Shown: positions 6,621 through 34,661, counted from the stretch's first letter. The stretch: 41,003 bases of DNA from a virus (IMGVR_UViG_3300045988_002471:1-41003), one strand, 5' to 3'. Notes: a model not told the origin generated them from the letters alone. Numbers and translations are program-made.

Positions 6621-6648
6621 AAGGCCCCGTTTGGGGCCTTAGTTTTAT
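6621..6648 (+). terminator. Rho-independent terminator (AAGGCCCC-gttt-GGGGCCTT + T-run) ending the plus-strand early operon; convergent with tailspike 3' end
   Basis: Perfect 8-bp GC stem then AGTTTTATTT. Confidence 0.7.
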
Positions 6649-15805: not shown

Positions 15806-16130
15806 GATTTCTACCTTCAAAGATTGCTTCTAAGCCCATGATAATGTCTATCTCGAACAGGCTAAGCTGTTTTTGCGTAACATCGAGATAGGCTTTCAGG
15901 TCTTGCCACGTAACAGATTCTCTTGCAAACAATACTACAGCGTCCTCGCGCACGTGTCGCGTAAACTTAATGTCGCAATACGTCTCAAAGGTGGATATAA
16001 AAAGGGGCGGGCATTCTGGCCCGCCCCGTCGCGCTGCACGTTTTTTCTTATCGATTACACCCATCGCGATAAGCGCCTGTTCGTGTCCGTCGGCGATAGA
16101 ATCAAACTCTCTGATTTTATGCTTATCCAC
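15798..16130 (-). CDS. Tail assembly chaperone T-like frame, probably expressed as a G-T fusion by -1 frameshift
   Basis: Frame is open from 16181 with no ATG; -1 relative to the upstream gene; GGAAAAG at 16166..16172. Confidence 0.45.
   Translation of the reverse strand: MDKHKIREFDSIADGHEQALIAMGVIDKKKRAARRGGPECPPLFISTFETYCDIKFTRHVREDAVVLFARESVTWQDLKAYLDVTQKQLSLFEIDIIMGLEAIFEGRNHG
16004..16035 (-). terminator. Intragenic terminator-like hairpin (GGGGCGGGC-N6-GCCCGCCCC then TTTTTATAT on minus strand) inside the T-like frame
   Basis: Perfect 9-bp GC stem at 16004..16027 with a U-run on the coding strand. Confidence 0.45.
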
Positions 16131-16976: not shown

Positions 16977-18107
16977 ATGGCCCAGAAGAAAATAACCGAC
17001 GAACAGTTACAGGAAGAATTGAACGCTGGGATGAAGAATATCGACATTGCTCGTAAATACGGCATCTCAGACCGCGTAATTCGTATCCGTAAAGCGAAGC
17101 TGGCTAAGAAAGGCGTAGGTCACGGGCGCGACGTTAGTCACCTTGTGCCGGACGGCTACAAGATTAAAGGAACGTCGTCACTGGTGGACGAGTTCGGCAA
17201 CACTAAGTTGCAATGGGTTAAAACCGACACTGACGCCGAACGTCAGGTTGAGTTGATGAAGGCCGTAATCGAGGGCATGAAGTCGGAGATTACCCCCGTT
17301 GCTCCTGTTAAAGCCGTTCGCGCCAAACGAGACGACAAGCTACTCAACCTTTACACTGTGTCTGATTTCCATCTCGGTATGCTGGCCTGGGCTGACGAGA
17401 GCGGCGACGACTGGGACATGAAGATTGCGGAAGACCTGTTCTCCCGCTGGTTCGACGCAGCGTTCCAGAAAGCACCGGATGCAGGAACAGGAGTTATTAA
17501 TCTGCTGGGCGACCTTGCGCATTTTGATAGTCTGGACGCCGTTACACCTGCCAGTGGTCATGTTCTTGACGCTGACACCCGCTATCAGAAACTTGTACGC
17601 TACATGATTCGTATGGTCCGCCGTGTCATTGATATGGCTCTCGTTAAACATAAAAATGTTCGCTTGCTTATCGTGCAAGGTAACCACGACGAAAGCGGAA
17701 TGATTTGGTTGGCTGAGATGTTCAGTACGCTATACGACAACGAGCCGCGTGTGTTCGTCGATACGTCGCCGGATGTTTACAAGATGGTGCAACACGGCAA
17801 AACTACGCTGTTCTTTCACCACGGCCATAAAGCACGATTCGATGCTATCGAACCAGTTATGATCGCCAAGTTCCGCAAAGCGTTCGGCGAGAGTGTTTAC
17901 AGCTACGCCCATATAGGACACCTGCACCATCAGAAGATTGTAGAAAGCCGTAACATGATTGTTGAACAACACCGCACCCTGGCGGCTAAAGACGCCTACG
18001 CCTCGCGCGGCGGATGGATGTCGGGCCGCAGTGCAAACGTAATTACTTATAGTGCCGAATATGGCGAGGTCGCACGTTTAACTATTTCACCGGAGATGCT
18101 TGGATGA
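16977..18107 (+). CDS. Calcineurin-like metallophosphoesterase with N-terminal HTH-like domain
   Basis: Phosphoesterase motifs DFHLG, GDLAHFD, GNHDE, HHGH, GHLHH; N-terminal about 60 aa resemble a small HTH. Confidence 0.7.
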   Translation: MAQKKITDEQLQEELNAGMKNIDIARKYGISDRVIRIRKAKLAKKGVGHGRDVSHLVPDGYKIKGTSSLVDEFGNTKLQWVKTDTDAERQVELMKAVIEGMKSEITPVAPVKAVRAKRDDKLLNLYTVSDFHLGMLAWADESGDDWDMKIAEDLFSRWFDAAFQKAPDAGTGVINLLGDLAHFDSLDAVTPASGHVLDADTRYQKLVRYMIRMVRRVIDMALVKHKNVRLLIVQGNHDESGMIWLAEMFSTLYDNEPRVFVDTSPDVYKMVQHGKTTLFFHHGHKARFDAIEPVMIAKFRKAFGESVYSYAHIGHLHHQKIVESRNMIVEQHRTLAAKDAYASRGGWMSGRSANVITYSAEYGEVARLTISPEMLG

Positions 18108-18589
18108 AAGATATTGTGATTTTCGATTTAGACGGGACATTGGCAGATGGTACTCATCGTTTACACCTGCTGCCGAAAGATAACTACGGCGAAACCTGGG
18201 CGTGGAAACCATTTAACATGGCGTGCAAAGACGATGCACCCATTAAAGATAACATCGAACTGTGTAACGCCATTAATCGTCGCTATGCCGTTATTATCTT
18301 AACAGGCCGTAGTGATGACGCGGAAAAAGAAACCAGAATGTGGTTGCAGCGCCACCGCGTCGAATTTTATCAGTTAATCATGCGCAGCAAACACGACAAC
18401 AGAAAAGACATCGTAATTAAAGAAGAGGTGTTGCGTGCTATTGGGCCGGAGAGAATCTTGTGTGCATTCGACGACTCTCCAGCGGTAATAAAGCATTTCC
18501 GCGAACTCGGCATAACCACTCACGCAGTTACTGAATACGACTGTAACGGGAACTCTACACACTTAAAACCACATGGGAGTGATAAATAA
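18104..18589 (+). CDS. HAD-family phosphatase, T4 polynucleotide kinase 3'-phosphatase-domain-like
   Basis: VIFDLDGTLA (DxDGT), IILTGRS, K, AFDDSP motifs; resemblance to T4 Pnk phosphatase domain recalled from memory. Confidence 0.65.
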   Translation: MKDIVIFDLDGTLADGTHRLHLLPKDNYGETWAWKPFNMACKDDAPIKDNIELCNAINRRYAVIILTGRSDDAEKETRMWLQRHRVEFYQLIMRSKHDNRKDIVIKEEVLRAIGPERILCAFDDSPAVIKHFRELGITTHAVTEYDCNGNSTHLKPHGSDK

Positions 18590-19143
18590 TGGCTAAGGTA
18601 ATTATTCTTAATGGTCCTGCGGGCTGCGGGAAAGACACACTTGCTAGGGCGCTGGTAGAAATGGGCTTTGCGAAGGGTGTCGCCAGTTTCAAGAATCCGA
18701 TGTTCAATATTGCTATGGCTGCGTTAGGCCAGGATGCTTACCGCGAGTTTCTCGACGGCTACGACGACCGGGCGCGGAAAGAAAAGCCAGAGGGTTTCCT
18801 TAACGGGTTGTCTCGGCGTCAGTTCATGATTGCCATTTCCGAGCAATTCATTAAACCGGTATTCGGTGATGATTATTTCGGCAAGTATCTTGCCGGAAAC
18901 TTGCCCGACGGCAACGAAGTTTTTGTAGTGTCCGACGGTGGATTCGCCAGCGAAGTAGCCCCTATCGTTGCCGCGGGGCATGATGTGAGAATCGTCCGCT
19001 TGCACAGAGACGGCCATACGTTTGAAGGGGACAGCCGCGGTTACCTGTACGATATTGATGGTGTAAAAGATTACGACACCTACATCATACCGGGTGACGT
19101 TAAATCGAACGTTATAGACATTGCTTTAAAATTAGGTTTGTAA
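18589..19143 (+). CDS. P-loop kinase (dNMP-kinase-like or polynucleotide-kinase-like)
   Basis: Walker A GPAGCGKDT; about 184 aa; start overlaps upstream stop. Confidence 0.6.
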   Translation: MAKVIILNGPAGCGKDTLARALVEMGFAKGVASFKNPMFNIAMAALGQDAYREFLDGYDDRARKEKPEGFLNGLSRRQFMIAISEQFIKPVFGDDYFGKYLAGNLPDGNEVFVVSDGGFASEVAPIVAAGHDVRIVRLHRDGHTFEGDSRGYLYDIDGVKDYDTYIIPGDVKSNVIDIALKLGL

Positions 19144-19180
19144 GAAAAAAAAAAAGGCCCCGAAAGGGGCCTTAGTTTTA
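19144..19180. terminator. Bidirectional rho-independent terminator (A-run, AAGGCCCC-gaaa-GGGGCCTT, T-run)
   Basis: Perfect stem flanked by A12 and T-run between convergent genes. Confidence 0.75.
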
Positions 19181-25045: not shown

Positions 25046-25071
25046 GTTTCCCCTTTCTCGATAAGTAAAGC

Positions 25072-25096
25072 CCCGCCTTAAAGCGGGGCGCTAGTC
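25072..25096 (-). terminator. Terminator-like hairpin (GCCCCGC-N6-GCGGGGC + U-rich tail) in the leader just upstream of the spanin RBS
   Basis: 7-bp GC stem then TTTACTTAT on the minus strand. Confidence 0.45.
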
Positions 25097-27034: not shown

Positions 27035-27688
27035 ATGAAACTGCAAACATTAGAGTTCCCTTATGGAGAAATCACTTTTGACCGTGAAAACTTTATTAAC
27101 GTAAACGAGCTGGTTGACCAGATGAACCGTTGGCGTTTAGACAACGGCATGGGGACAAGAGAGCTTCGCCAGGTCATGGCAACGGATGGCTTCAAGATTT
27201 TCAAGGAGGAATGCGAAAAACAACTCGGAATCGAGAATGCCATAAGGGCGACGAAAGGCCGAAACGGTCGCACCTTTGCATGTCTCCATCTGGCAGTATA
27301 TATTGCTGAGCAATACAGCGCCTATTTCCATTTCCTCGTTATCGACCGCTTTATCACACAACGGCAGGTAGAACTACGAAACATTGGCGCGGTGAGCTTT
27401 GTCGAGCTTAACGCTGCCGTTAGTCGAATGATTGAGCGCACGGAGGGAAGAATTGGCCACAGTGGACACTTCATACAGGTGGCTAAAGCGGTAAAGGAAT
27501 CCGTAGATATCCGCGACGTAACGGGTTTCGATACATGGGACTCTCAGGATGCGAAGACCAATCAGTTGCGAAGTGACATCCAGAAAGCTCTGGTGACACT
27601 TCTTGACATGGAGGCCGTTAATACATGGGGTGAACTGAAAGAGGCGATACCCCGGGTTGTGCGTAAATGTGCGGCTAATATACGTTAA
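27035..27688 (+). CDS. KilA-N domain protein
   Basis: N-terminal ...INVNELVDQ...GRNGRTFACLHLAVYIAEQYSAYFHFLVIDRF matches KilA-N/APSES pattern from memory; only plus-strand gene inside the head module. Confidence 0.6.
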   Translation: MKLQTLEFPYGEITFDRENFINVNELVDQMNRWRLDNGMGTRELRQVMATDGFKIFKEECEKQLGIENAIRATKGRNGRTFACLHLAVYIAEQYSAYFHFLVIDRFITQRQVELRNIGAVSFVELNAAVSRMIERTEGRIGHSGHFIQVAKAVKESVDIRDVTGFDTWDSQDAKTNQLRSDIQKALVTLLDMEAVNTWGELKEAIPRVVRKCAANIR

Positions 27689-27692
27689 AGCT

Positions 27693-27720
27693 AAGGCCCC
27701 TAGCGGGGCCTTTCTATTTA
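27693..27720 (+). terminator. Rho-independent terminator (AAGGCCCC-tagc-GGGGCCTT + T-rich) between KilA-N gene and portal 3' end
   Basis: Perfect 8-bp stem then TCTATTTA. Confidence 0.6.
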
Positions 27721-29199
27721 CTCCTGCTGTTGCGCCGACTGCGGAATCTCGCCAGTTACCTGAGTAACAGCGCCTAACGGCACAGGTGCATCCTCAATAG
27801 CCGTTGTAATCTCCTCGTCAGTCCAGTCAGTTACCCCAGCCTTACGCAACGCGGCGTAGTAAGCAGTTGCCGGTAGTAAACCGGCATTAATGTCTGCCAT
27901 CCACTGCGCACGGTCCTGAGCGGTCATTGGTTGCAGGAAGAACTCCATGTTCAGTTTGAACTCAATTTCAGTGCTGTCGCTAATCCCAAGCATACCCGCG
28001 ACCCAGCGCAACGCATCGGTATACGCCATGCTTACGTTACGTGCGATTGTTGCCATAACGGACGTATCAGCGCCGCGTTGCAGACGCGCCGATTCAGCAG
28101 TGATTTGCTGCGTCGGGGTAATAAGCTGTGCACCAATCTGGATAGCCTGATTCTCTTTATCCAGCATGTTCTGTTTGGCGAGGTTGTTCTCTCCTGCCTG
28201 AACCAGAAACGCATTGCCGCCGTAACCGATGTTATGGCCTGAACGCGACCCCATGCGCACGCCGTGAGGGTTAGCTTCTTTCCACTGCGCCATGCTCATA
28301 TTCTCACCGGGGGCGATGAACAGAGTAGGCTGGCCTACGACGAAGCTGGACTCCTCATTGTCCGCGCTGTTGCGGAAGTGCCCGATATTAAGTTCAGCCA
28401 ACGGCAGCAAAGGTGCATCGTCAGGGGTTGGGTCGTTATTTCCCGCGCCGATGAACGTGAACGGAATCACCCCGACCGGAATATTACCGAGTTTCGGGAA
28501 TATTTCGATATAGCCACCTTCCATCAGTGCACCTTTCTGGTTAAAGCGGTACAGACGCTGGCGATACTGGCCTTCGAAAATATCAAGGACGCGGTATTGC
28601 TCGCCGTAGTTGGGGCTGAACTCATCCGCGCCATCGGTGTACTCGTATTCCTCACGCAATACAACCATAACCACACGATTAACAGACCCGACGCGCTGGA
28701 GACGCCAGTTGATGATGTTCTCTGCGGTGTAGAAAGCGATTGTTGGGTTTAGTAAACCCTCGTTTTGCTCTGCCATGGTAGCTACTTCTACCGCGGGGGC
28801 GTCAACCAGCAAACCACCGCGACCAACAGCATCAATCTCATACAGAGTATCCTGTGCGTGCTGCCACAGGCCAACGCCCGACCCGTCACAGTTAGTGGTC
28901 AGGTATTCCATCTGAGACGGAATAATCATCTCGGGGTCTTTGCGCATTACGCTGCCGACCATGCCTGAAAGCGTTCGCTTGGTGAAGTTGTAGCAAATTG
29001 CCCCCGCTTCGTATTCAGCCTGACGCTGGCGACCGTAAACCGGGTCCGGCTCGTTCTTACTGACGTCACGTAGATACGATGTCAGGTCGCCAGAAAGCGC
29101 ATGTCGCACCTTCTGCCACTTAGGGAAATACTCTTCGTACTGGCGGTGGCGGGTTTTAACGTTCTGCCCTTGCCCTGCGTTAATGTTTGCGGAAACCAT
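27718..29199 (-). CDS. Portal protein
   Basis: 493 aa directly downstream of terminase large subunit. Confidence 0.75.
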   Translation of the reverse strand: MVSANINAGQGQNVKTRHRQYEEYFPKWQKVRHALSGDLTSYLRDVSKNEPDPVYGRQRQAEYEAGAICYNFTKRTLSGMVGSVMRKDPEMIIPSQMEYLTTNCDGSGVGLWQHAQDTLYEIDAVGRGGLLVDAPAVEVATMAEQNEGLLNPTIAFYTAENIINWRLQRVGSVNRVVMVVLREEYEYTDGADEFSPNYGEQYRVLDIFEGQYRQRLYRFNQKGALMEGGYIEIFPKLGNIPVGVIPFTFIGAGNNDPTPDDAPLLPLAELNIGHFRNSADNEESSFVVGQPTLFIAPGENMSMAQWKEANPHGVRMGSRSGHNIGYGGNAFLVQAGENNLAKQNMLDKENQAIQIGAQLITPTQQITAESARLQRGADTSVMATIARNVSMAYTDALRWVAGMLGISDSTEIEFKLNMEFFLQPMTAQDRAQWMADINAGLLPATAYYAALRKAGVTDWTDEEITTAIEDAPVPLGAVTQVTGEIPQSAQQQE

Positions 29200-29210: not shown

Positions 29211-30461
29211 TTAAAGTGCGAAAGTCACAGGGATGTTGATTACTGGTTTAACCACCGGCATCTCGTAAACTACAGGATAGCCGAGAGCATCCGCCATATG
29301 GTCAATGATGCCGTCTTTAGCTGGCTCTCCGTTATCGTCGTATGCCTGCTGCTCCAGCGTCTTCGCTATCTCAGGGCATAAGTGGTCGTTAATCCACAGT
29401 TTACCTTTTTCCAGTGCGGTATTCACGGCTAAAACACGGTCTTTAACCGGAGGGTTGGCGGATTTAGCGCGAACATCGAAACCTGCCTGCTGGAGTAACG
29501 CAATATCTGAGATTGACGCCGAGTTGGTCTTGCGGTTCTTGCCGCTGGCGTCCGGGTAAACGACTATGCGGTGGCCCTGCGACTTCCACTTCTCAGTAAT
29601 TACGCGCACGGTATCCGGTGTATCGAACAGGCCTTTCAGTTCTGCTACCGCGTGCCAGCCGTCTTTACGTTGCACATACACGGCGCTTGCGTTCTTCGTA
29701 ACGTTGAAGTCCTGCCCGATGTACAACGTGTCACCCGGTTGAATTACCTCTTTGCTGCGGTGCTTACGGCGGTCATATGCGTAATACACGCTGCCGGAGG
29801 TAAGGTTGACGAACTCACCATTCAGATACGCGTTAATCAACTGCGCCGGATAAGTCTCGGTCAGCGAACTAATGTAGTCAGGCGGCAGGAATCGCGCGTT
29901 CTCGTGTGTAGAAGCCTGCACCATCGAGTAACTCGGCGTCGGGTTCTCTTTGAACTTGGCGTAGACGAACTTGAACCCTTCCGGTGTCGTGGTGACAGAG
30001 ATGTGGTTAATTACACCAGGAATAACAAGACGCATACGGGCGACAATTTTGTTCCACGCCAGCTCAGCTTTCTCACGGCTCAATACATCAAGCTCATCCA
30101 CGACCGCAGCGGCGATTTTGAAGCCGACTATCGAGCCTGGGTTATCCATAGAACGGCAGATAACTGTACCGAGCACCGTCTTACCGCGAGTAACCACGAC
30201 TTCTTTGTCGCCAGATTTAACCAGCACATCGAGGCCGAGCAGGTTAGCGGCTTCCTCAAATGTCGGGTAGAAGATGTCACGGATAGCCGGGTATGTCGGG
30301 CCGAAGTAACCCAGGCGCGTACCTGGATGCTTGAGCATAAACGTAAGCAGGTCAAGGCAGCCAACAAATGTCTTGCCACTGCCGAAGCCGCCGACGTAGG
30401 CCTTGTATTTATTATCGCAATTCAGGAACAGCGCCTGAGGGGCGGATAGCTGAATACTCAT
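29211..30461 (-). CDS. Terminase large subunit
   Basis: Walker A GGFGSGKT near N-terminus; 416 aa; ATGA coupling to upstream small subunit. Confidence 0.85.
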   Translation of the reverse strand: MSIQLSAPQALFLNCDNKYKAYVGGFGSGKTFVGCLDLLTFMLKHPGTRLGYFGPTYPAIRDIFYPTFEEAANLLGLDVLVKSGDKEVVVTRGKTVLGTVICRSMDNPGSIVGFKIAAAVVDELDVLSREKAELAWNKIVARMRLVIPGVINHISVTTTPEGFKFVYAKFKENPTPSYSMVQASTHENARFLPPDYISSLTETYPAQLINAYLNGEFVNLTSGSVYYAYDRRKHRSKEVIQPGDTLYIGQDFNVTKNASAVYVQRKDGWHAVAELKGLFDTPDTVRVITEKWKSQGHRIVVYPDASGKNRKTNSASISDIALLQQAGFDVRAKSANPPVKDRVLAVNTALEKGKLWINDHLCPEIAKTLEQQAYDDNGEPAKDGIIDHMADALGYPVVYEMPVVKPVINIPVTFAL

Positions 30462-31003
30462 TCCTCTACCTCGCCCATGTTTGTGGTAACTATTTTGCCT
30501 ACGGGCTCCGCAACACTGAAAATAATCTCAGTCGGTGCCGTTTCTTCGGTGGATTCGACCGGTTTCTCTTTGCTAAGGCCTAGCTTCGCGGCAGCAAATG
30601 TAGCCGAGATGCCCGCGGCCCCGGTCTCGGTGAAGTATGCCTCTTCCAGTGCCTGTGCAGTTTCATAGGCTTCTGCAAATGCGGGAATCTCGCGCAGCCA
30701 CAGCTTAATAATCGGGATAGTGACGCCGATGTGCAGGGCGAAGCGGGCCAGTGATGGGGGTTTATCCTGAATCAGCGGGCGCTCTTCACCCTTGGACGTA
30801 GGCACAAGTTCCCATGACGTGCGGTCGAAGAACTCGATTAGCGCGTCGCAATAATCCGGGTCCCACAGCGCGGCGGAATTACGGGATGATTGATAAAGGC
30901 TCTGTTTACCGCGCGGTCGTTTACGTCGGCGGTTTGCGCTAACAGCTTCTTCATGTGCAGCTTGCACCACCTCTGGCGATGGCTGCTTGAGTTTCAGCTT
31001 CAT
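30458..31003 (-). CDS. Terminase small subunit (putative)
   Basis: Immediately upstream of and overlapping the large subunit; start set to ATG 31003 after RBS AAGGGGA. Confidence 0.5.
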   Translation of the reverse strand: MKLKLKQPSPEVVQAAHEEAVSANRRRKRPRGKQSLYQSSRNSAALWDPDYCDALIEFFDRTSWELVPTSKGEERPLIQDKPPSLARFALHIGVTIPIIKLWLREIPAFAEAYETAQALEEAYFTETGAAGISATFAAAKLGLSKEKPVESTEETAPTEIIFSVAEPVGKIVTTNMGEVEE

Positions 31004-31095
31004 ATAATCCCCTTGCATATGCGTCTGACCATCAGAGCGCACCAGACGCGCCCTACGCGTCTAAAGGGATTATATAAGGGGATTGGGCGGGATGT

Positions 31096-31121
31096 ACAGA
31101 AAAGCCCTCGGTAGAGGGCTT
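31096..31121 (-). terminator. Terminator-like hairpin (AAGCCCTC-ggta-GAGGGCTT) ending the small-ORF operon
   Basis: 8-bp stem plus T-rich tail on the minus strand. Confidence 0.45.
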
Positions 31122-31124
31122 GTA

Positions 31125-31226
31125 TCAGTTGTATAGGCCGTGGCGTGGTGCTCTTTTACCGTCGCCGCCGTAATGGTCGTTAGCTACGGGAATGGCCCAG
31201 GCGTTAGGGATGATTAGTAGTCTCAT
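31125..31226 (-). CDS. Tiny ORF (33 aa)
   Basis: Own translation; ATGA coupling to upstream ORF. Confidence 0.2.
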   Translation of the reverse strand: MRLLIIPNAWAIPVANDHYGGDGKRAPRHGLYN

Positions 31227-31381
31227 TTGAAGAAACCATCCTCGACAAGCTGACGGTATAGTTTAGCTGCGTAACGCTCTGCCTGGCCTTTGCGCCGAAA
31301 TATTTTCCCATTAACTGAATACTTATTTAACTCTGGCTCGTACCAAACTTGGTTGTCGATGAACTCCAGAATACTAATCAT
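31223..31381 (-). CDS. Small ORF (52 aa)
   Basis: Own translation MISILEFIDNQVWYEPELNKYSVNGKIF...; ATGA coupling. Confidence 0.3.
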   Translation of the reverse strand: MISILEFIDNQVWYEPELNKYSVNGKIFRRKGQAERYAAKLYRQLVEDGFFK

Positions 31382-31614
31382 TCCCCACTCTCCTCTTTAG
31401 CAATACGTTGCTCAGTTTTAGTGATACCCCGGCGCGTGAATAACACCGGGCTTGTCTTAACGTGCGTCATCAGACGGTTGTTATAAATTACATGGCGCTC
31501 GCAGTTAACGTCTTTGCTGTACTTGGCAATCGTCATTTCGTTGATGCCGGTTTGTCGGCATGTCTCAGCCATCGTGCCGTATTCTTTAATCAGGTTCGGA
31601 ATGCTGGTAATCAT
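31378..31614 (-). CDS. Small protein with possible HTH (78 aa)
   Basis: Track ORF trimmed to MITSIPNLIKEYGTMAETCRQTGINEMTIAKYSKD... (ATGA coupling). Confidence 0.4.
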   Translation of the reverse strand: MITSIPNLIKEYGTMAETCRQTGINEMTIAKYSKDVNCERHVIYNNRLMTHVKTSPVLFTRRGITKTEQRIAKEESGE

Positions 31615-31781
31615 CCTAAGAAATTCCTCGTTGTCCACATCGCATTCGGATATTTGTTATCGCGGTCCCGCACTACGGCAACCATGTTACCGCGTTGCAC
31701 CAGGCAAAAGTGCCGTTGTTGCTCGCCGTTGTAACGACGCCAGATTGCCTCTTCGATTGCTGCGTTAATGTCACTGAACAC
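31611..31781 (-). CDS. Small ORF (about 56 aa, GTG start)
   Basis: Track ORF has TTG start; GTG with RBS chosen instead. Confidence 0.3.
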   Translation of the reverse strand: MFSDINAAIEEAIWRRYNGEQQRHFCLVQRGNMVAVVRDRDNKYPNAMWTTRNFLG

Positions 31782-31866
31782 TGCCTCTACCCCACATAAA
31801 CCCAATCAACACGCCGATGAAATAACCGGCCGCCACAAGACCGATAACCACTTCAAGGCTCATACA

Positions 31867-32058
31867 TTACCCCACTATCTCATCACCGAGCCACGCCGTT
31901 TCTCGTATATCGTCGACCACACAAGCGGCGTGCTCACGGCTAATTGCAAAAATGTAGAAGCTGAACTTCTTCCCGTCGGCGTCGATGTGGTTAACCGAGT
32001 ATGGTTTCCACAGGACGCCATCGATAACTACGGGTTCAGGCGCTTTCATACCCATCAC
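31867..32058 (-). CDS. Small hypothetical protein (63 aa)
   Basis: Track ORF in the coupled small-ORF operon. Confidence 0.4.
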   Translation of the reverse strand: MMGMKAPEPVVIDGVLWKPYSVNHIDADGKKFSFYIFAISREHAACVVDDIRETAWLGDEIVG

Positions 32059-32233
32059 CCCGGGATTTGTTCAGGTTGAAGCGGTTAATCAGTTCACGGC
32101 GTGTCTCATAAAGCGACTCCACCATTTGCTCGGCTACCGCGATTTTAGTATTCAGGACGCGCATCACGTGGCTGATGTCTACGCCGCCGTTAACGGCCTC
32201 TACCATCATCTTTTCGTATTCACGGTCGGTCAT
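32036..32233 (-). CDS. Small hypothetical protein (65 aa)
   Basis: Start set to MTDREYEK (ATGA coupling, RBS GGGGAGAG). Confidence 0.4.
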   Translation of the reverse strand: MTDREYEKMMVEAVNGGVDISHVMRVLNTKIAVAEQMVESLYETRRELINRFNLNKSRGDGYESA

Positions 32234-32385
32234 TTTTTCTCTCCCCACATGCGATTGAGATACTTGTTCTTGTCCGGCCCCGGGAAACTGTTACGTTTCA
32301 TCAGTTCCTCGCGTGACGGGAACGGGACGTGACTGACTTTACGGCCTACTCGTAACGGCTGGCTTACTGGGCCTTGTTCGCTCAT
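32230..32385 (-). CDS. Small ORF (51 aa)
   Basis: Own translation MSEQGPVSQPLRVGRKVSHVPFPSREELMKRNSFPGPDKNKYLNRMWGEKK; RBS AGGAGA. Confidence 0.35.
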   Translation of the reverse strand: MSEQGPVSQPLRVGRKVSHVPFPSREELMKRNSFPGPDKNKYLNRMWGEKK

Positions 32386-32531
32386 TTCTTCTCTCCTGCA
32401 TAAGCTGCTTTAAGTGTCTGCATCGCGGCGAACCAGAACGCGTCCGCTGGAATGCTGTTGCTCAGGTTACTAATGGCGATGCGCGCCATCAGTTGTGCGT
32501 CTTTGAATGCTTCGGTATCTGTGATTTTCAT
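32382..32531 (-). CDS. Small ORF (49 aa)
   Basis: Own translation MKITDTEAFKDAQLMARIAISNLSNSIPADAFWFAAMQTLKAAYAGEKK; ATGA coupling both ends. Confidence 0.35.
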   Translation of the reverse strand: MKITDTEAFKDAQLMARIAISNLSNSIPADAFWFAAMQTLKAAYAGEKK

Positions 32532-32899: not shown

Positions 32900-33403
32900 T
32901 CAACCTTTCACCGCGCGCCCAATAGCCTCAGCCTCTTGCCACGGTTTACCGTCGAACAGCGCCAGACGCCCGGCTGTACGGCGACGCAGGCCAAGTAGTG
33001 GTTTGCCGTTCTGGTTGATGAACAGCGCCAGCTTAGCCCGCAGTGTTGCAGTATCACCAGAACGCAGTGCCTTGCCTGTGCCCGTAGTAGACGCAATCAC
33101 GCCAGCACCTGCGTTATACACCAGGTCACACACCGCATCGAACTGTGCCTGTGTAAGCGAATGGTGTGCTGCTGCGTCAACCGCAGCTACAGCCTTAGCC
33201 ATATCGCGATTCAGTAACAGTAAGCCCTGTCCTGGTGTGATGGTCTTACCTGGTGTTACGTCCGGCCCGTAGTGACCATAACCAATAGTCAGGTACTTCT
33301 CGTTCGGCGTAGCGCGATATGCAGTACCGCGGAACCCCTCGAACGCGGCGGTAAAATGCAATCCATTATCTGAAATATTTCGAGACACGCTTATGTCCTC
33401 CAT
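32900..33403 (-). CDS. Endolysin, lysozyme-like (GH24-type)
   Basis: FTAAFEGFRGTAY...TIGYGH lysozyme signature; start set to MEDISV (ATG 33403). Confidence 0.7.
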   Translation of the reverse strand: MEDISVSRNISDNGLHFTAAFEGFRGTAYRATPNEKYLTIGYGHYGPDVTPGKTITPGQGLLLLNRDMAKAVAAVDAAAHHSLTQAQFDAVCDLVYNAGAGVIASTTGTGKALRSGDTATLRAKLALFINQNGKPLLGLRRRTAGRLALFDGKPWQEAEAIGRAVKG

Positions 33404-33638
33404 ACGACAGCCACGCCTGGCGAATCTGACGCAGTGCAACTAAAGTGATTAATGTCTCAGGCAGCGTAGGCGACATGCTGCCCTGTAACAGGTGAATACA
33501 TCCGGCGGCGCAGACAATAGCGGTCAGGATATAGAGCACCCGGCCAAATAATCCGTCGTCCACGCTGGGATGATATACATTAAACAGCGATGCGCCACCG
33601 ATTGCCAGCATACCGCCGAACCAGAATAGCTCATTCAT
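33366..33638 (-). CDS. Small two-TM membrane protein (holin/antiholin-like)
   Basis: Two hydrophobic segments; start set to MNELFWFGG; overlaps endolysin start. Confidence 0.4.
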   Translation of the reverse strand: MNELFWFGGMLAIGGASLFNVYHPSVDDGLFGRVLYILTAIVCAAGCIHLLQGSMSPTLPETLITLVALRQIRQAWLSYGGHKRVSKYFR

Positions 33639-33939
33639 CAGGGCCTCCTCGACGTGCAATGTATTCTCCGGCGACGATACCGGAGAGGCGGGAATAGAGG
33701 GGCATCCAGAGAATAGCAATGATGAACCCAAGGCCCGCTATTTCGCGTTCACCTGTGATACCGAACCATTGTGCTGCGAGAGGCGCACCAAATACGGCGC
33801 AGGTGAAGCCAGTTGCAATAAAGCAGAAGCCGTCAATAGGGCCAGAAATAACGGACTTATGTTGCCTTAGTCCGATTACCCCACCAGCTAGTGCGGCGGC
33901 GAGAAGCCACCCCGTCACTGTTTCAGTAAATTTATCCAA
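33631..33939 (-). CDS. Holin (three predicted TM segments), TTG start
   Basis: 102 aa, hydrophobic segments, charged C-terminus; RBS GGAGGA 6 nt before TTG. Confidence 0.55.
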   Translation of the reverse strand: MDKFTETVTGWLLAAALAGGVIGLRQHKSVISGPIDGFCFIATGFTCAVFGAPLAAQWFGITGEREIAGLGFIIAILWMPLYSRLSGIVAGEYIARRGGPDE

Positions 33940-34014
33940 GATGAATCCTCCAGGTGCGTATTAAGTATGCAGTAACTGGAGGATACCACGGGTAGGAATT
34001 ATCCTAATAACGGT

Positions 34015-34308
34015 TTATTTATGTCTCCAGATGTATTGGCGTCTCTGCGGTTTCGTCGGAATATCATCGTATCCCAACGATTTCCAGTAATTAAATAGCC
34101 GATTAGCGATTGCTGCGCGTTCCTGTGTTTTAAACTCACCGAGATTCACAGCCTTCCCGTTCTGGAATCCACAGGCGCGTACCGCTTTGCGTCTGGCCTG
34201 AATCTCGGGGTACAGTGCATTACGGCGGCGCTTGTGTATACGCGTATTCGCTCTCGGCGACAGCGGCGCAAGGCCGCTTCGTTTCAGGATGTCAGTTGCT
34301 AACGACAT
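34015..34308 (-). CDS. Hypothetical basic protein (97 aa)
   Basis: Track ORF coupled to upstream gene. Confidence 0.4.
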   Translation of the reverse strand: MSLATDILKRSGLAPLSPRANTRIHKRRRNALYPEIQARRKAVRACGFQNGKAVNLGEFKTQERAAIANRLFNYWKSLGYDDIPTKPQRRQYIWRHK

Positions 34309-34637
34309 TATTTCTCCTGTTTACCAAGTCGCTTAGGTGAGCAGATAGCGCGTACCTCCGAACCGTACGCACCTTTGCGGATAAGTTTGTATGCCTCCAC
34401 GTCACCAGTAGCCTCGGCCAATGCCAGATGCAACTCCTTAACTTGCCCTGTCAGGTGCGATATGTGCTCAGATTTCTTAATGTTGTCTTCCCGCAACTCC
34501 TTAATCTGCGCCGACGCATCACGTAACTGATTCTTAAGTGACTGCACCTCATGCGCCAGGTCTTCGCTCCGGCTGTTATTTACCTGCTGCCGTAGCTGGT
34601 CGATCAGGTACTCGAATATTTCGTTTTTGTTACTCAT
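34308..34637 (-). CDS. Hypothetical coiled-coil protein (about 109 aa)
   Basis: Start set to MSNKNEIF after RBS GAGGGGA. Confidence 0.4.
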   Translation of the reverse strand: MSNKNEIFEYLIDQLRQQVNNSRSEDLAHEVQSLKNQLRDASAQIKELREDNIKKSEHISHLTGQVKELHLALAEATGDVEAYKLIRKGAYGSEVRAICSPKRLGKQEK

Positions 34638-34661
34638 CTCTGTCTCCCCTCTCATTTGTGT

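Follow-up and report, generated by a model that had tools for sequence, protein, structure and literature searches.

Stem-loops that stabilize a message from its extreme 5′ end are known from the ompA 5′ untranslated region (UTR; hairpins hp1 and hp2) and from the T7 gene 10 leader, both of which figure in the literature on RNase E and RppH. Leader RNA is used differently in the T4 genes e, soc, 49, and I-TevI, where the ribosome-binding site (RBS) is paired with an upstream segment in long read-through transcripts and the transcripts of the gene's own promoter lack the inhibitory strand (PMC3014915). The put RNAs of HK022 open a sigma70 transcript with two adjacent hairpins; they head a terminator-containing operon and need no dedicated protein (PMC9378689). 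Here we describe the leader of terS, the small terminase subunit gene, in a viral DNA of 41,003 nucleotides (IMGVR_UViG_3300045988_002471:1-41003; the whole stretch analyzed, called the window below), in which a group of short repeats sits in the 120-nt gap 5′ of terS. Two adjacent, independent hairpins, HP1 and HP2, were found on the terS sense strand, and comparison with related leaders showed that they are kept by compensatory evolution. Judged from these sequences, the leader is an undescribed, covariation-supported two-hairpin RNA within a terminator-promoter-leader-RBS module of several virulent siphophage genera.

On the minus strand of the window, the parts follow one another 5′ to 3′ as terminator-like hairpin, promoter, CCCUUU, HP1, one G, HP2, AUGC, Shine-Dalgarno sequence (SD), UUAU, and terS AUG. 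The segment from 31063 to 31015 reads U-AGACGCG-UAGGG-CGCGUCU-G-GUGCGCUCUGAUGGU-CAGACGC-AUAUGC. In the following list, P0 is an outer helix between the SD region and an upstream segment (the anti-SD), R1 is a covariance model of HP1 + HP2, and TSS stands for transcription start site.

31121..31102, minus: terminator-like hairpin, AAGCCCUC-uacc-GAGGGCUU followed by UUCUGU; a perfect 8-bp inverted repeat with a 4-nt loop, adjoining the -35 box
31098..31069, minus: predicted sigma70-type promoter, -35 TGTACA (31098..31093), 18-nt spacer, -10 TATAAT (31074..31069); 10 of 12 consensus matches
31084..31071, minus: second direct copy of the anti-SD, AAUCCCCUUAUAUA
31075..31063, minus: anti-SD, the 5′ arm of P0, AUAUAAUCCCUUU; overlapping both the -10 box and the discriminator and hence 5′ of the predicted TSS
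31063..31015, minus: R1 match (HP1 + HP2), 66.3 bits, E 2e-15
31062..31044, minus: HP1, AGACGCGU-agg-GCGCGUCU; 8-bp stem, triloop AGG, first base 6 nt after the -10 hexamer; pair probability 0.99
31042..31019, minus: HP2, GUGCG-c-UCUGA-ugg-UCAGA-CGCAU; lower stem of 5 bp, one bulged C, upper stem of 5 bp, triloop UGG; pair probability 0.975
31014..31001, minus: 3′ arm of P0, comprising the SD AAGGGGA (31014..31008), the spacer UUAU, and the terS AUG (31003..31001)

A repeat search recovered both inverted pairs that a sequence-only reading of this DNA had described, namely, AGACGCG/CGCGTCT (31044-31050 and 31056-31062, with 5 nt between the arms) and GCGTCTG/CAGACGC (31021-31027 and 31043-31049, with 15 nt between the arms). 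That reading counted three copies of GCGTCTG/CAGACGC. Three occurrences hold strictly for the hexamer AGACGC/GCGTCT only; the heptamer GCGTCTG is present twice in the leader, and it is not a rare word because the window contains 11 copies against 5.9 expected. A fourth, degenerate copy, GCG-c-UCUG (31040..31033), had been overlooked and is the true partner of the third copy, CAGACGC (31027..31021). As an arrangement, the repeats are far beyond chance because they are conserved with covariation in relatives.

Relatives were gathered through homology of the TerS protein, not of the leader, to avoid bias, and were drawn from IMG/VR, JGI and ENA metagenomes, and GenBank phages. They belonged to Kagunavirus (K), Jerseyvirus (J), the Cornellvirus type (C1 and C2), a metagenomic "D" type, and at least eight further metagenomic lineages (L123, L124, L135, L136, L138, L141, L146, and L147). 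Forty-four distinct leaders were aligned with MAFFT, and the two-hairpin model and the alternative helix discussed below were both counted on this alignment. The RNAalifold consensus was exactly HP1 plus the upper stem of HP2. In the two-hairpin model, 96.5% of the alignment cells formed a standard pair, whereas the slid registers all gave 17-54%. Double-sided changes were found at 8 of 13 pairs and filled 53 cells, compared with 15.4 ± 3.4 in shuffles that leave phylogenetic relatedness in, none of which (0/500) reached 53. Taken singly, HP1 paired in 94.6% of cells with double changes at 5 of its 8 pairs, and the HP2 upper stem paired in 99.5% with double changes at 3 of 5 (C-G/A-U/G-C and U-A/C-G). 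The latter stem is UCUGA/UCAGA in K, UAUGA/UCAUA in J and C, UGCGA/UCGCG in D, UACCGA/UCGGUA in L123, GUGUGA/UCACAC in L124, and GCGUA/UACGC in Klebsiella phage VLCpiS11a. When the sequences were folded singly, every lineage had an HP2 of 9-12 bp with one bulge, lower stem included; these folds were used in place of a model-based alignment (A5), which left the K/J lower-stem register uncorrected and whose 83% for HP2 is an underestimate.

The sequence-only reading had proposed that the middle arm pairs either within HP1 or with the third copy, so that two mutually exclusive hairpins would give attenuation or translational control. On paper the two are exclusive, and the 7-bp complementarity GCGUCUG/CAGACGC that this switch needs is present in the window and other Kagunavirus-type leaders. 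In the window, however, the two-hairpin fold had an energy of -23.1 kcal/mol and the best fold with the alternative helix -14.8 kcal/mol, that is, 8.3 kcal/mol worse, and the pair probability of the alternative helix was ~1e-5. From the -10 region to the start codon, the window leader folded with z = -4.9 against shuffles. Folding thus gave the predicted AGACGCG/CGCGTCT hairpin, which is HP1, but placed the third copy in HP2 with the fourth. The comparison with related terminase leaders had a similar outcome in that HP1 was kept and the alternative helix was not: it paired in 62.7% of cells, its covariation was not above controls, and its central pair occurred only in the 18 K-type rows, with CAUACGC in Jerseyvirus and CAUACAC or CAUAACC in the Cornellvirus type. 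In relatives, the alternative helix is broken by a change of G to U or C, and it is this very change for which HP2 shows compensation (C-G to A-U, G-C, and others). Moreover, HP1 is transcribed and folded before the third copy exists, and the SD is unpaired in either state. No U-tract followed HP1 or HP2 in any lineage, so neither hairpin is an attenuator terminator, and attenuation by alternative structures is not supported. Mutually exclusive hairpins are refuted as a conserved mechanism, and the chance that such a switch operates in the window is very slight.

The module is common to Guernseyvirinae, Dhillonvirus, and metagenomic relatives and is conserved even where the TerS proteins are ~30% identical. 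From the -10 box to the SD, Kagunavirus and Cornellvirus-type leaders were 73-80% identical, whereas their TerS proteins were only 29-30% identical. With filters off, R1 found a single copy in the 41-kb window (next best, 8.4 bits), and it recovered all the lineages named above (K, J, C, D, and the further metagenomic ones) at 48-71 bits. A match 5′ of terS in Dhillonvirus (22.5 bits, E 4e-5) was confirmed by eye in nine distinct Dhillonvirus leaders. The group of Klebsiella phage VLCpiS11a has the same architecture with different stems and was missed by R1, and R1 did not find the element in more distant TerS relatives. Among 185,579 bacterial species genomes searched for prophage or bacterial copies, no TerS relative was found, and the Rfam 15 covariance models at E <= 1 gave no relevant match in window positions 30000-32500 or in eight divergent loci. 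In Dhillonvirus Maverick (L182/L186, 706-730), the annotated terS start, ATGAACAAAAGGG..., comes directly after the HP2 3′ strand, its A being preceded by the last HP2 base, the U of ...GCGCAU. As judged from the sequence, the more likely start is an ATG located 21 nt downstream, which has a properly spaced SD, AAGGG.

We then considered whether the conserved pairing acts in RNA or in DNA. In DNA, the repeats could serve the terminase, as its pac or recognition site, or a dimeric regulator, as its operator at positions +1 to +45 of the late promoter. Packaging signals typically lie just 5′ of terS, as they do in SPP1; the predicted +1 falls within HP1, a near-perfect palindrome; palindrome covariation can in principle come from half-sites co-evolving with a dimeric binder; and Jerseyviruses package by a headful mechanism, presumably from an unlocated pac site (PMC10783031). 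DNA recognition does not predict, however, that asymmetric departures from pairing are biased. In HP1 and the HP2 upper stem together, 42 G.U cells and 7 A.C cells, which are not independent events, were counted on the terS sense strand. The A.C cells were all at outermost stem pairs (six at the three outermost HP1 pairs and one at the outermost HP2 upper-stem pair), and the five inner HP1 pairs had 31 G.U and no A.C cells. Because the wobble pairs are biased to G.U there, the element is read as RNA on the terS sense strand. In HP2, moreover, either strand can carry a bulge and the lower stem varies in length, and the element stays constant while TerS diverges to ~30% identity. Terminus analyses of Jerseyviruses gave random, permuted ends (PMC9409062, Table 2; PMC10783031); in the published data, PhageTerm assigned such ends to SeF1, and K47 had no submolar pac fragment. 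The suggestion that the region might be a packaging site therefore found no support in the wobble asymmetry or in the Jerseyvirus ends, and a pac or operator function is unlikely; action at the DNA level as a whole we consider quite improbable.

Many GenBank and IMG/VR records of Jerseyvirus and Kagunavirus are linearized 39 nt 5′ of the terS ATG, exactly between HP1 and HP2 (31042/31043, minus), including those of SETP3, SETP7, SETP13, AG11, Bas73, Bas75, SeF1, and PVP-SE2 (L025, L034, L042, L045, L046, and L053). A physical genome end or pac site at this boundary (record starts at 31042) was considered and rejected in view of the SeF1 and K47 data. Since Jerseyvirus ends are published as random and permuted, these record starts are a convention, and the element escapes annotation in such records because it is split across both record ends.

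In all 20 lineage representatives, HP1 starts 6-9 nt after a -10 hexamer, in nearly all of them with a purine, and from this distance HP1 should cap the 5′ end of the transcript. The hexamer, TAYAAT, was invariant in 20/20 while the 17-18 nt spacers were scrambled, and a -35-like hexamer (TGTACA, TTGCCW, TTGCGT, TTGCTA, or TTCCCC) was kept at 17-18 nt; Dhillonviruses have an extended -10, TGnTATAAT, in its place. TAYAAT is conserved as a promoter and not for pairing, because it is invariant even where its SD partner changes. Transcription is thus predicted to start ~7 nt after TATAAT, which would leave HP1 at the extreme 5′ end with 0-2 unpaired nt. When folded from the predicted +1, the RNA of every lineage had HP1 at its 5′ end, HP2 0-1 nt later, and a single-stranded SD.

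Nearly all lineages have a C directly after the -10 hexamer (TAYAATC) and a discriminator rich in C and G (CCC or CGC; window 31068..31063 and equivalents). C/G-rich discriminators of the rRNA type give short-lived open complexes. By analogy, these features might link the activity of the late promoter to host physiology; alternatively, they may be no more than a consequence of the anti-SD.

A further layer of structure was detected when the window RNA was folded from 5′ of the promoter. The minimum free energy (MFE) structure was a three-way junction of -41 kcal/mol (z -4.9), in which AUAUAAUCCCUUU, from the -10 box and discriminator, pairs with AAGGGGAUUAUAU, from SD to AUG, to form P0. Two inverted repeats with the SD region were found, I2 (13 nt, 92%) and I3 (14 nt, 86%). 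The arms of P0 covary: CCCUUU/AAGGGG in K, CAAUCC-UUAA/UUAA-gaga-GGAUUG in J, UAAUCaCCUG/CAGGaGAUUA in C1, GAACCU/AGGUUC in D, CCGUU/AACGG in L135, UAAUCCU/AGGAUUA in L147, CCCUU/AAGGG in Dhillonvirus, and CCCAUUA/UAAUGGG in VLCpiS11a. RNAduplex ranked a lineage's own SD region first among the partners of its anti-SD in 8 of 14 cases (0/20000 permutations as good, p < 5e-5), with a mean energy of -6.95 kcal/mol for own pairs versus -4.46 kcal/mol across lineages. P0 with covariation was clear in K, J, C1, L124, L135, L147, Dhillonvirus, and VLCpiS11a. The unpaired probability from SD to AUG was 0.44 in read-through RNA versus 0.62 in RNA from the predicted +1 (p = 0.02) and 0.51 with the anti-SD shuffled (p = 0.05); the window means were 0.23 and 0.62, respectively. 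The anti-SD takes in the end of the -10 hexamer together with the 6-9 nt discriminator, and transcripts of the leader's own promoter would thus lack it by the predicted TSS. Comparison of the sequences shows that the -10/discriminator is complementary to the SD and covaries with it in ~10 of 16 lineages, from which we infer a function; we regard the P0 layer as real in many lineages but accessory. The idea that terminase is controlled through its leader therefore survives in part: an RNA structure is present in the terS 5′ leader and translational control is plausible, but the comparatively supported pairing is that of the -10/discriminator with the SD instead.

The explanation that we favor, tentatively and with somewhat less than even confidence, is that the terminase/structural (late) operon is transcribed with a conserved, cis-acting 5′ leader RNA, to which the repeats belong and which both protects the late mRNA and presents it, with a read-through lock like that of T4. 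Transcription from the local sigma70-type promoter would put HP1 at the extreme 5′ end of the mRNA, and the HP1-HP2 pair would shield the long late mRNA from 5′-end-dependent decay by RppH and RNase E, in the manner of the ompA 5′ UTR, and would hold the terS RBS open. The -10/discriminator DNA would encode an anti-SD that is carried only by transcripts reading through the upstream terminator. In such read-through RNA, the anti-SD would pair with the SD and AUG (P0, three-way junction) and keep terS untranslated, whereas local-promoter transcripts, which lack the anti-SD, would stay translatable, the same logic as in T4 genes e, soc, 49, and I-TevI.

The leader resembles those of ompA and T7 gene 10 in that a highly expressed message begins with a hairpin almost without overhang, which is followed by a second hairpin near an accessible SD. 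On the predicted TSS, HP1 lies within the ~0-3 nt of the 5′ end that is characteristic of ompA-type stem-loops. In contrast, the leader is unrelated to them in sequence, is far shorter than the ompA UTR of 133 nt, and has tips that are invariant across very divergent phages, which is not required of a purely structural cap; a stabilizing effect of the terS leader is a proposal. With the T4 genes the leader shares a promoter that lies in the DNA encoding the 5′ strand of the SD-occluding helix. Its promoter, however, is of the sigma70 type with TAYAAT (TGTACA-18-TATAAT or TTGCCW-17-TATAAT), whereas the T4 late promoter is of the gp55 type (TATAAATA); its inhibitory helix closes a three-way junction holding two further conserved hairpins, whereas that of T4 is a simple stem-loop; and its pairing is found in only ~10 of 16 lineages with a modest predicted effect. 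Because it has a sigma70-type promoter in siphophages without gp55, the leader is an analogue of the T4 system and not a member of it.

Several points weigh against this explanation. The 5′-terminal placement of HP1 depends on promoter prediction, and no TSS, RNA-seq, half-life, or translation data for Guernseyvirinae or Dhillonvirus were found in the literature. Phylogenetic relatedness persists in the shuffle controls for covariation, and the G.U/A.C asymmetry falls short of significance if distinct pair types are counted (10 versus 4), although its direction is the one expected of a sense-strand RNA. C2, D, L123, L136 (an apparent recombinant), L141, and L199 have a weak P0 or none; the Kagunavirus variants CCAUUU, CCAAUU, and CUAUUU weaken it without compensation; and the predicted change in accessibility is modest. 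Finally, a generic stabilizer hairpin needs no near-invariant loops or closing pairs, and the A-U closing pair of HP2 never covaries (44/44).

The tips are near-invariant while the stems drift by compensation, with GC(A/U)GGGC in HP1 and GA(U/C)GGUC in HP2, and the A-U and G-C closing pairs of HP2 were unvaried in 44 of 44 leaders. Such a pattern suggests that the two similar NGG-triloop tips are specifically recognized by some partner. The hairpins might accordingly be a recognition element for a trans-acting partner with a mainly regulatory role, either RNA polymerase, made terminator-resistant over the ~24-kb operon, or a phage or host protein at the NGG tips that controls translation or elongation. 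This alternative, which we consider possible but on balance doubtful, fits the invariant tips and a leader that is more conserved than the TerS protein. Its placement is also like that of putL, with two adjacent hairpins from +1 to +3 of a sigma70 transcript heading a long operon (PMC9378689); the operon downstream holds strong same-strand terminator-like hairpins; and the hosts are gamma-proteobacteria, as for put. On the other hand, the element occurs once per genome, no candidate binding protein was identified, and no sequence or profile similarity to put was found (R1 on the whole HK022 genome gave at most 9.2 bits, E 0.65). CsrA-type sites were rejected, the loops, as read from the sequence, being without GGA.

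Like put, the leader consists of two adjacent stem-loops right after a sigma70 promoter and upstream of terminators, and the arms of putL stem I (A3-G7/C15-U19), AGACG/CGUCU followed by CGCG, are the same words as in the HP1 of the window (L181, NC_002166, 28312..28240, minus). These arms are not a feature of the put family: they covary within it, and putR has UACCG/CGGUA, for which reason the shared arms are discounted as homology and judged, from the sequences, to be coincidence or convergence. The match is striking nonetheless, since each element begins at +1 to +3 of its transcript. The put RNAs (~73 nt) have a triplex with its base triple, bulges and irregular stems, a conserved AACGGC loop, and a conserved stem II core (GGAUGA...CAAUG), whereas the leader element (~48 nt) has regular stems with NGG triloops and lacks the conserved put parts. 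Furthermore, put is found twice per genome in temperate lambdoid phages and the leader element once in virulent siphophages. Membership in put was therefore rejected, R1 having given only weak hits, one of them over putL. By analogy with put, whose RNAs act in cis as antiterminators by binding the beta′ zinc-binding domain of RNA polymerase and suppressing termination and pausing, HP1 + HP2 could still bind the emerging host RNA polymerase without a protein and make it terminator-resistant for the ~24-kb late operon, with the NGG tips as contacts. We regard this as improbable; if true, virulent siphophages (Guernseyvirinae and Dhillonvirus) would possess a processive antiterminator RNA of a second class, put-like in function but unrelated to put.

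A likeness to lambda nut was also noted, since the leader element is downstream of a promoter and the Kagunavirus HP2 5′ strand, CGCUCUGA, resembles boxA, CGCUCUUA. The boxA-like word, however, is paired and not single-stranded in the leader, there is no boxB-type GNRA-like pentaloop, and no N-like protein was identified. The boxA resemblance of CGCUCUGA was dismissed as confined to Kagunavirus; the other lineages have CGCUAUGA, CGUUAUGA, UGUUGCGA, and AUUACCGA.

As a further alternative, the AUG in the HP2 loop (GAUGGUC) might start a short upstream open reading frame (ORF) translationally coupled to terS. In the window, this ORF (31032..31001, minus) has 10 codons, MVRRICKGII, and its UGA stop overlaps the terS AUG as AUGA. 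The loop AUG is present in almost all lineages, and an overlap of the stop with the terS start codon is seen in K, C2, L136, and L177. However, the length varied from 5 to >20 codons in frames 0, 1, and 2 (in frame with terS in four lineages), AUG was replaced by ACG in L124 and L052, and the AUG is inside a stable triloop with no preceding SD. A conserved upstream ORF was rejected on account of the inconsistent frames and lengths and the ACG variants, and coupling of this kind is hardly credible.

The module stands at the single entry point to the packaging and structural genes in hundreds of sequenced phages (Kagunavirus, Jerseyvirus, Cornellvirus, Dhillonvirus, and uncultured relatives), many of which are phage therapy candidates, and it is unannotated, not in Rfam, and cut through its middle in many GenBank records. 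The well-defined two-hairpin motif offers a way to study how late gene expression is timed and protected in virulent siphophages dependent on the host RNA polymerase. The T4 trick of hiding the RBS in read-through transcripts appears to extend to sigma70 promoters in an unrelated phage group. For phage engineering, the terminator, promoter, leader, and RBS form a compact unit of ~130 bp that should be kept undisrupted. The importance would be considerably greater if the invariant tips prove to bind RNA polymerase or a protein.

The terminator-like hairpin at the head of the module shows covariation of its own, with CCCUC/GAGGG in K, CCCGC/GCGGG in J, and GCCCGC/GCGGGC in C-like lineages. In phage PVP-SE2, the equivalent hairpin is annotated as a rho-independent terminator, and homology to many Jerseyviruses starts exactly at this point. 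Hairpin 31121..31102 probably ends the upstream lysis/small-ORF transcription unit. A simple scan missed it because the longest stem takes in two Ts that belong to the tail.

As a genome, the window is essentially complete and of the Kagunavirus type, with Escherichia phage G AB-2017 as the best match (95.7% identity) and phages K1G, K1H, and K1ind as close relatives. The minus strand carries a block of ~28 kb that opens with the lysis genes (34655..32900), continues with small ORFs and terS, and goes on to terL, portal, head, and tail genes and the tailspike, ending at 6645. The first genes after the leader are as follows.

31003..30458, minus: terS, 181 aa, MKLKLKQ...; first gene of the ~24-kb packaging/structural operon, annotated in relatives as terminase small subunit
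30461..29211, minus: terL, directly after terS
29199..27718, minus: portal gene, after terL

Strong terminator-like hairpins lie inside the late operon on the same strand at 25089..25070, 19173..19154 (T10), and 16027..16004. The second of these is a perfect bidirectional terminator-like hairpin (19154-19173, AAGGCCCC-nnnn-GGGGCCTT; T10 on the minus strand) at the meeting point of the minus-strand tail genes and a three-gene plus-strand cassette (16977..19143). The opposite strand carries an ORF of 217 aa (27035..27688, plus) between the portal and head-morphogenesis genes, with a weak KilA-N match (21 bits, under the Pfam cutoff) and its own terminator-like hairpin at 27693-27712; it forms a moron-like insertion to be crossed by late transcription.

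Two genes 5′ of terS, an 86-aa ORF (31378..31638, minus) has a sub-threshold NinH match (24.3 bits versus a cutoff of 29.8), and small ORFs neighboring it are annotated in relatives as transcriptional regulator, zinc-finger protein, or DNA-binding protein. From its sequence, the 86-aa ORF is a possible candidate regulator of the adjacent promoter. In Kagunavirus fBC-Eco01, a PHIRE analysis detected seven copies of a palindromic motif, tgAATAGTa-ccTATTat-T, which were read as phage promoters although Kagunaviruses encode no RNA polymerase (PMC9825357). Just 5′ of the terminator-like hairpin, a 33-aa ORF, MRLLIIPNAWAIPVANDHYGGDGKRAPRHGLYN, occupies 31125..31226 (minus). The DNA at ~31228..31141 is 75-89% identical to that of a different group of E. 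coli phages, 50 kb in size (swan01, JLBYU01, Tuinin, FritzSarasin, and tiwna), and in another locus (L110) a similar C-terminal peptide (...DHYAGDGQRARRHGIYN) ends right before the terminator. The 33-aa ORF looks like a small conserved gene that travels beside the leader module.

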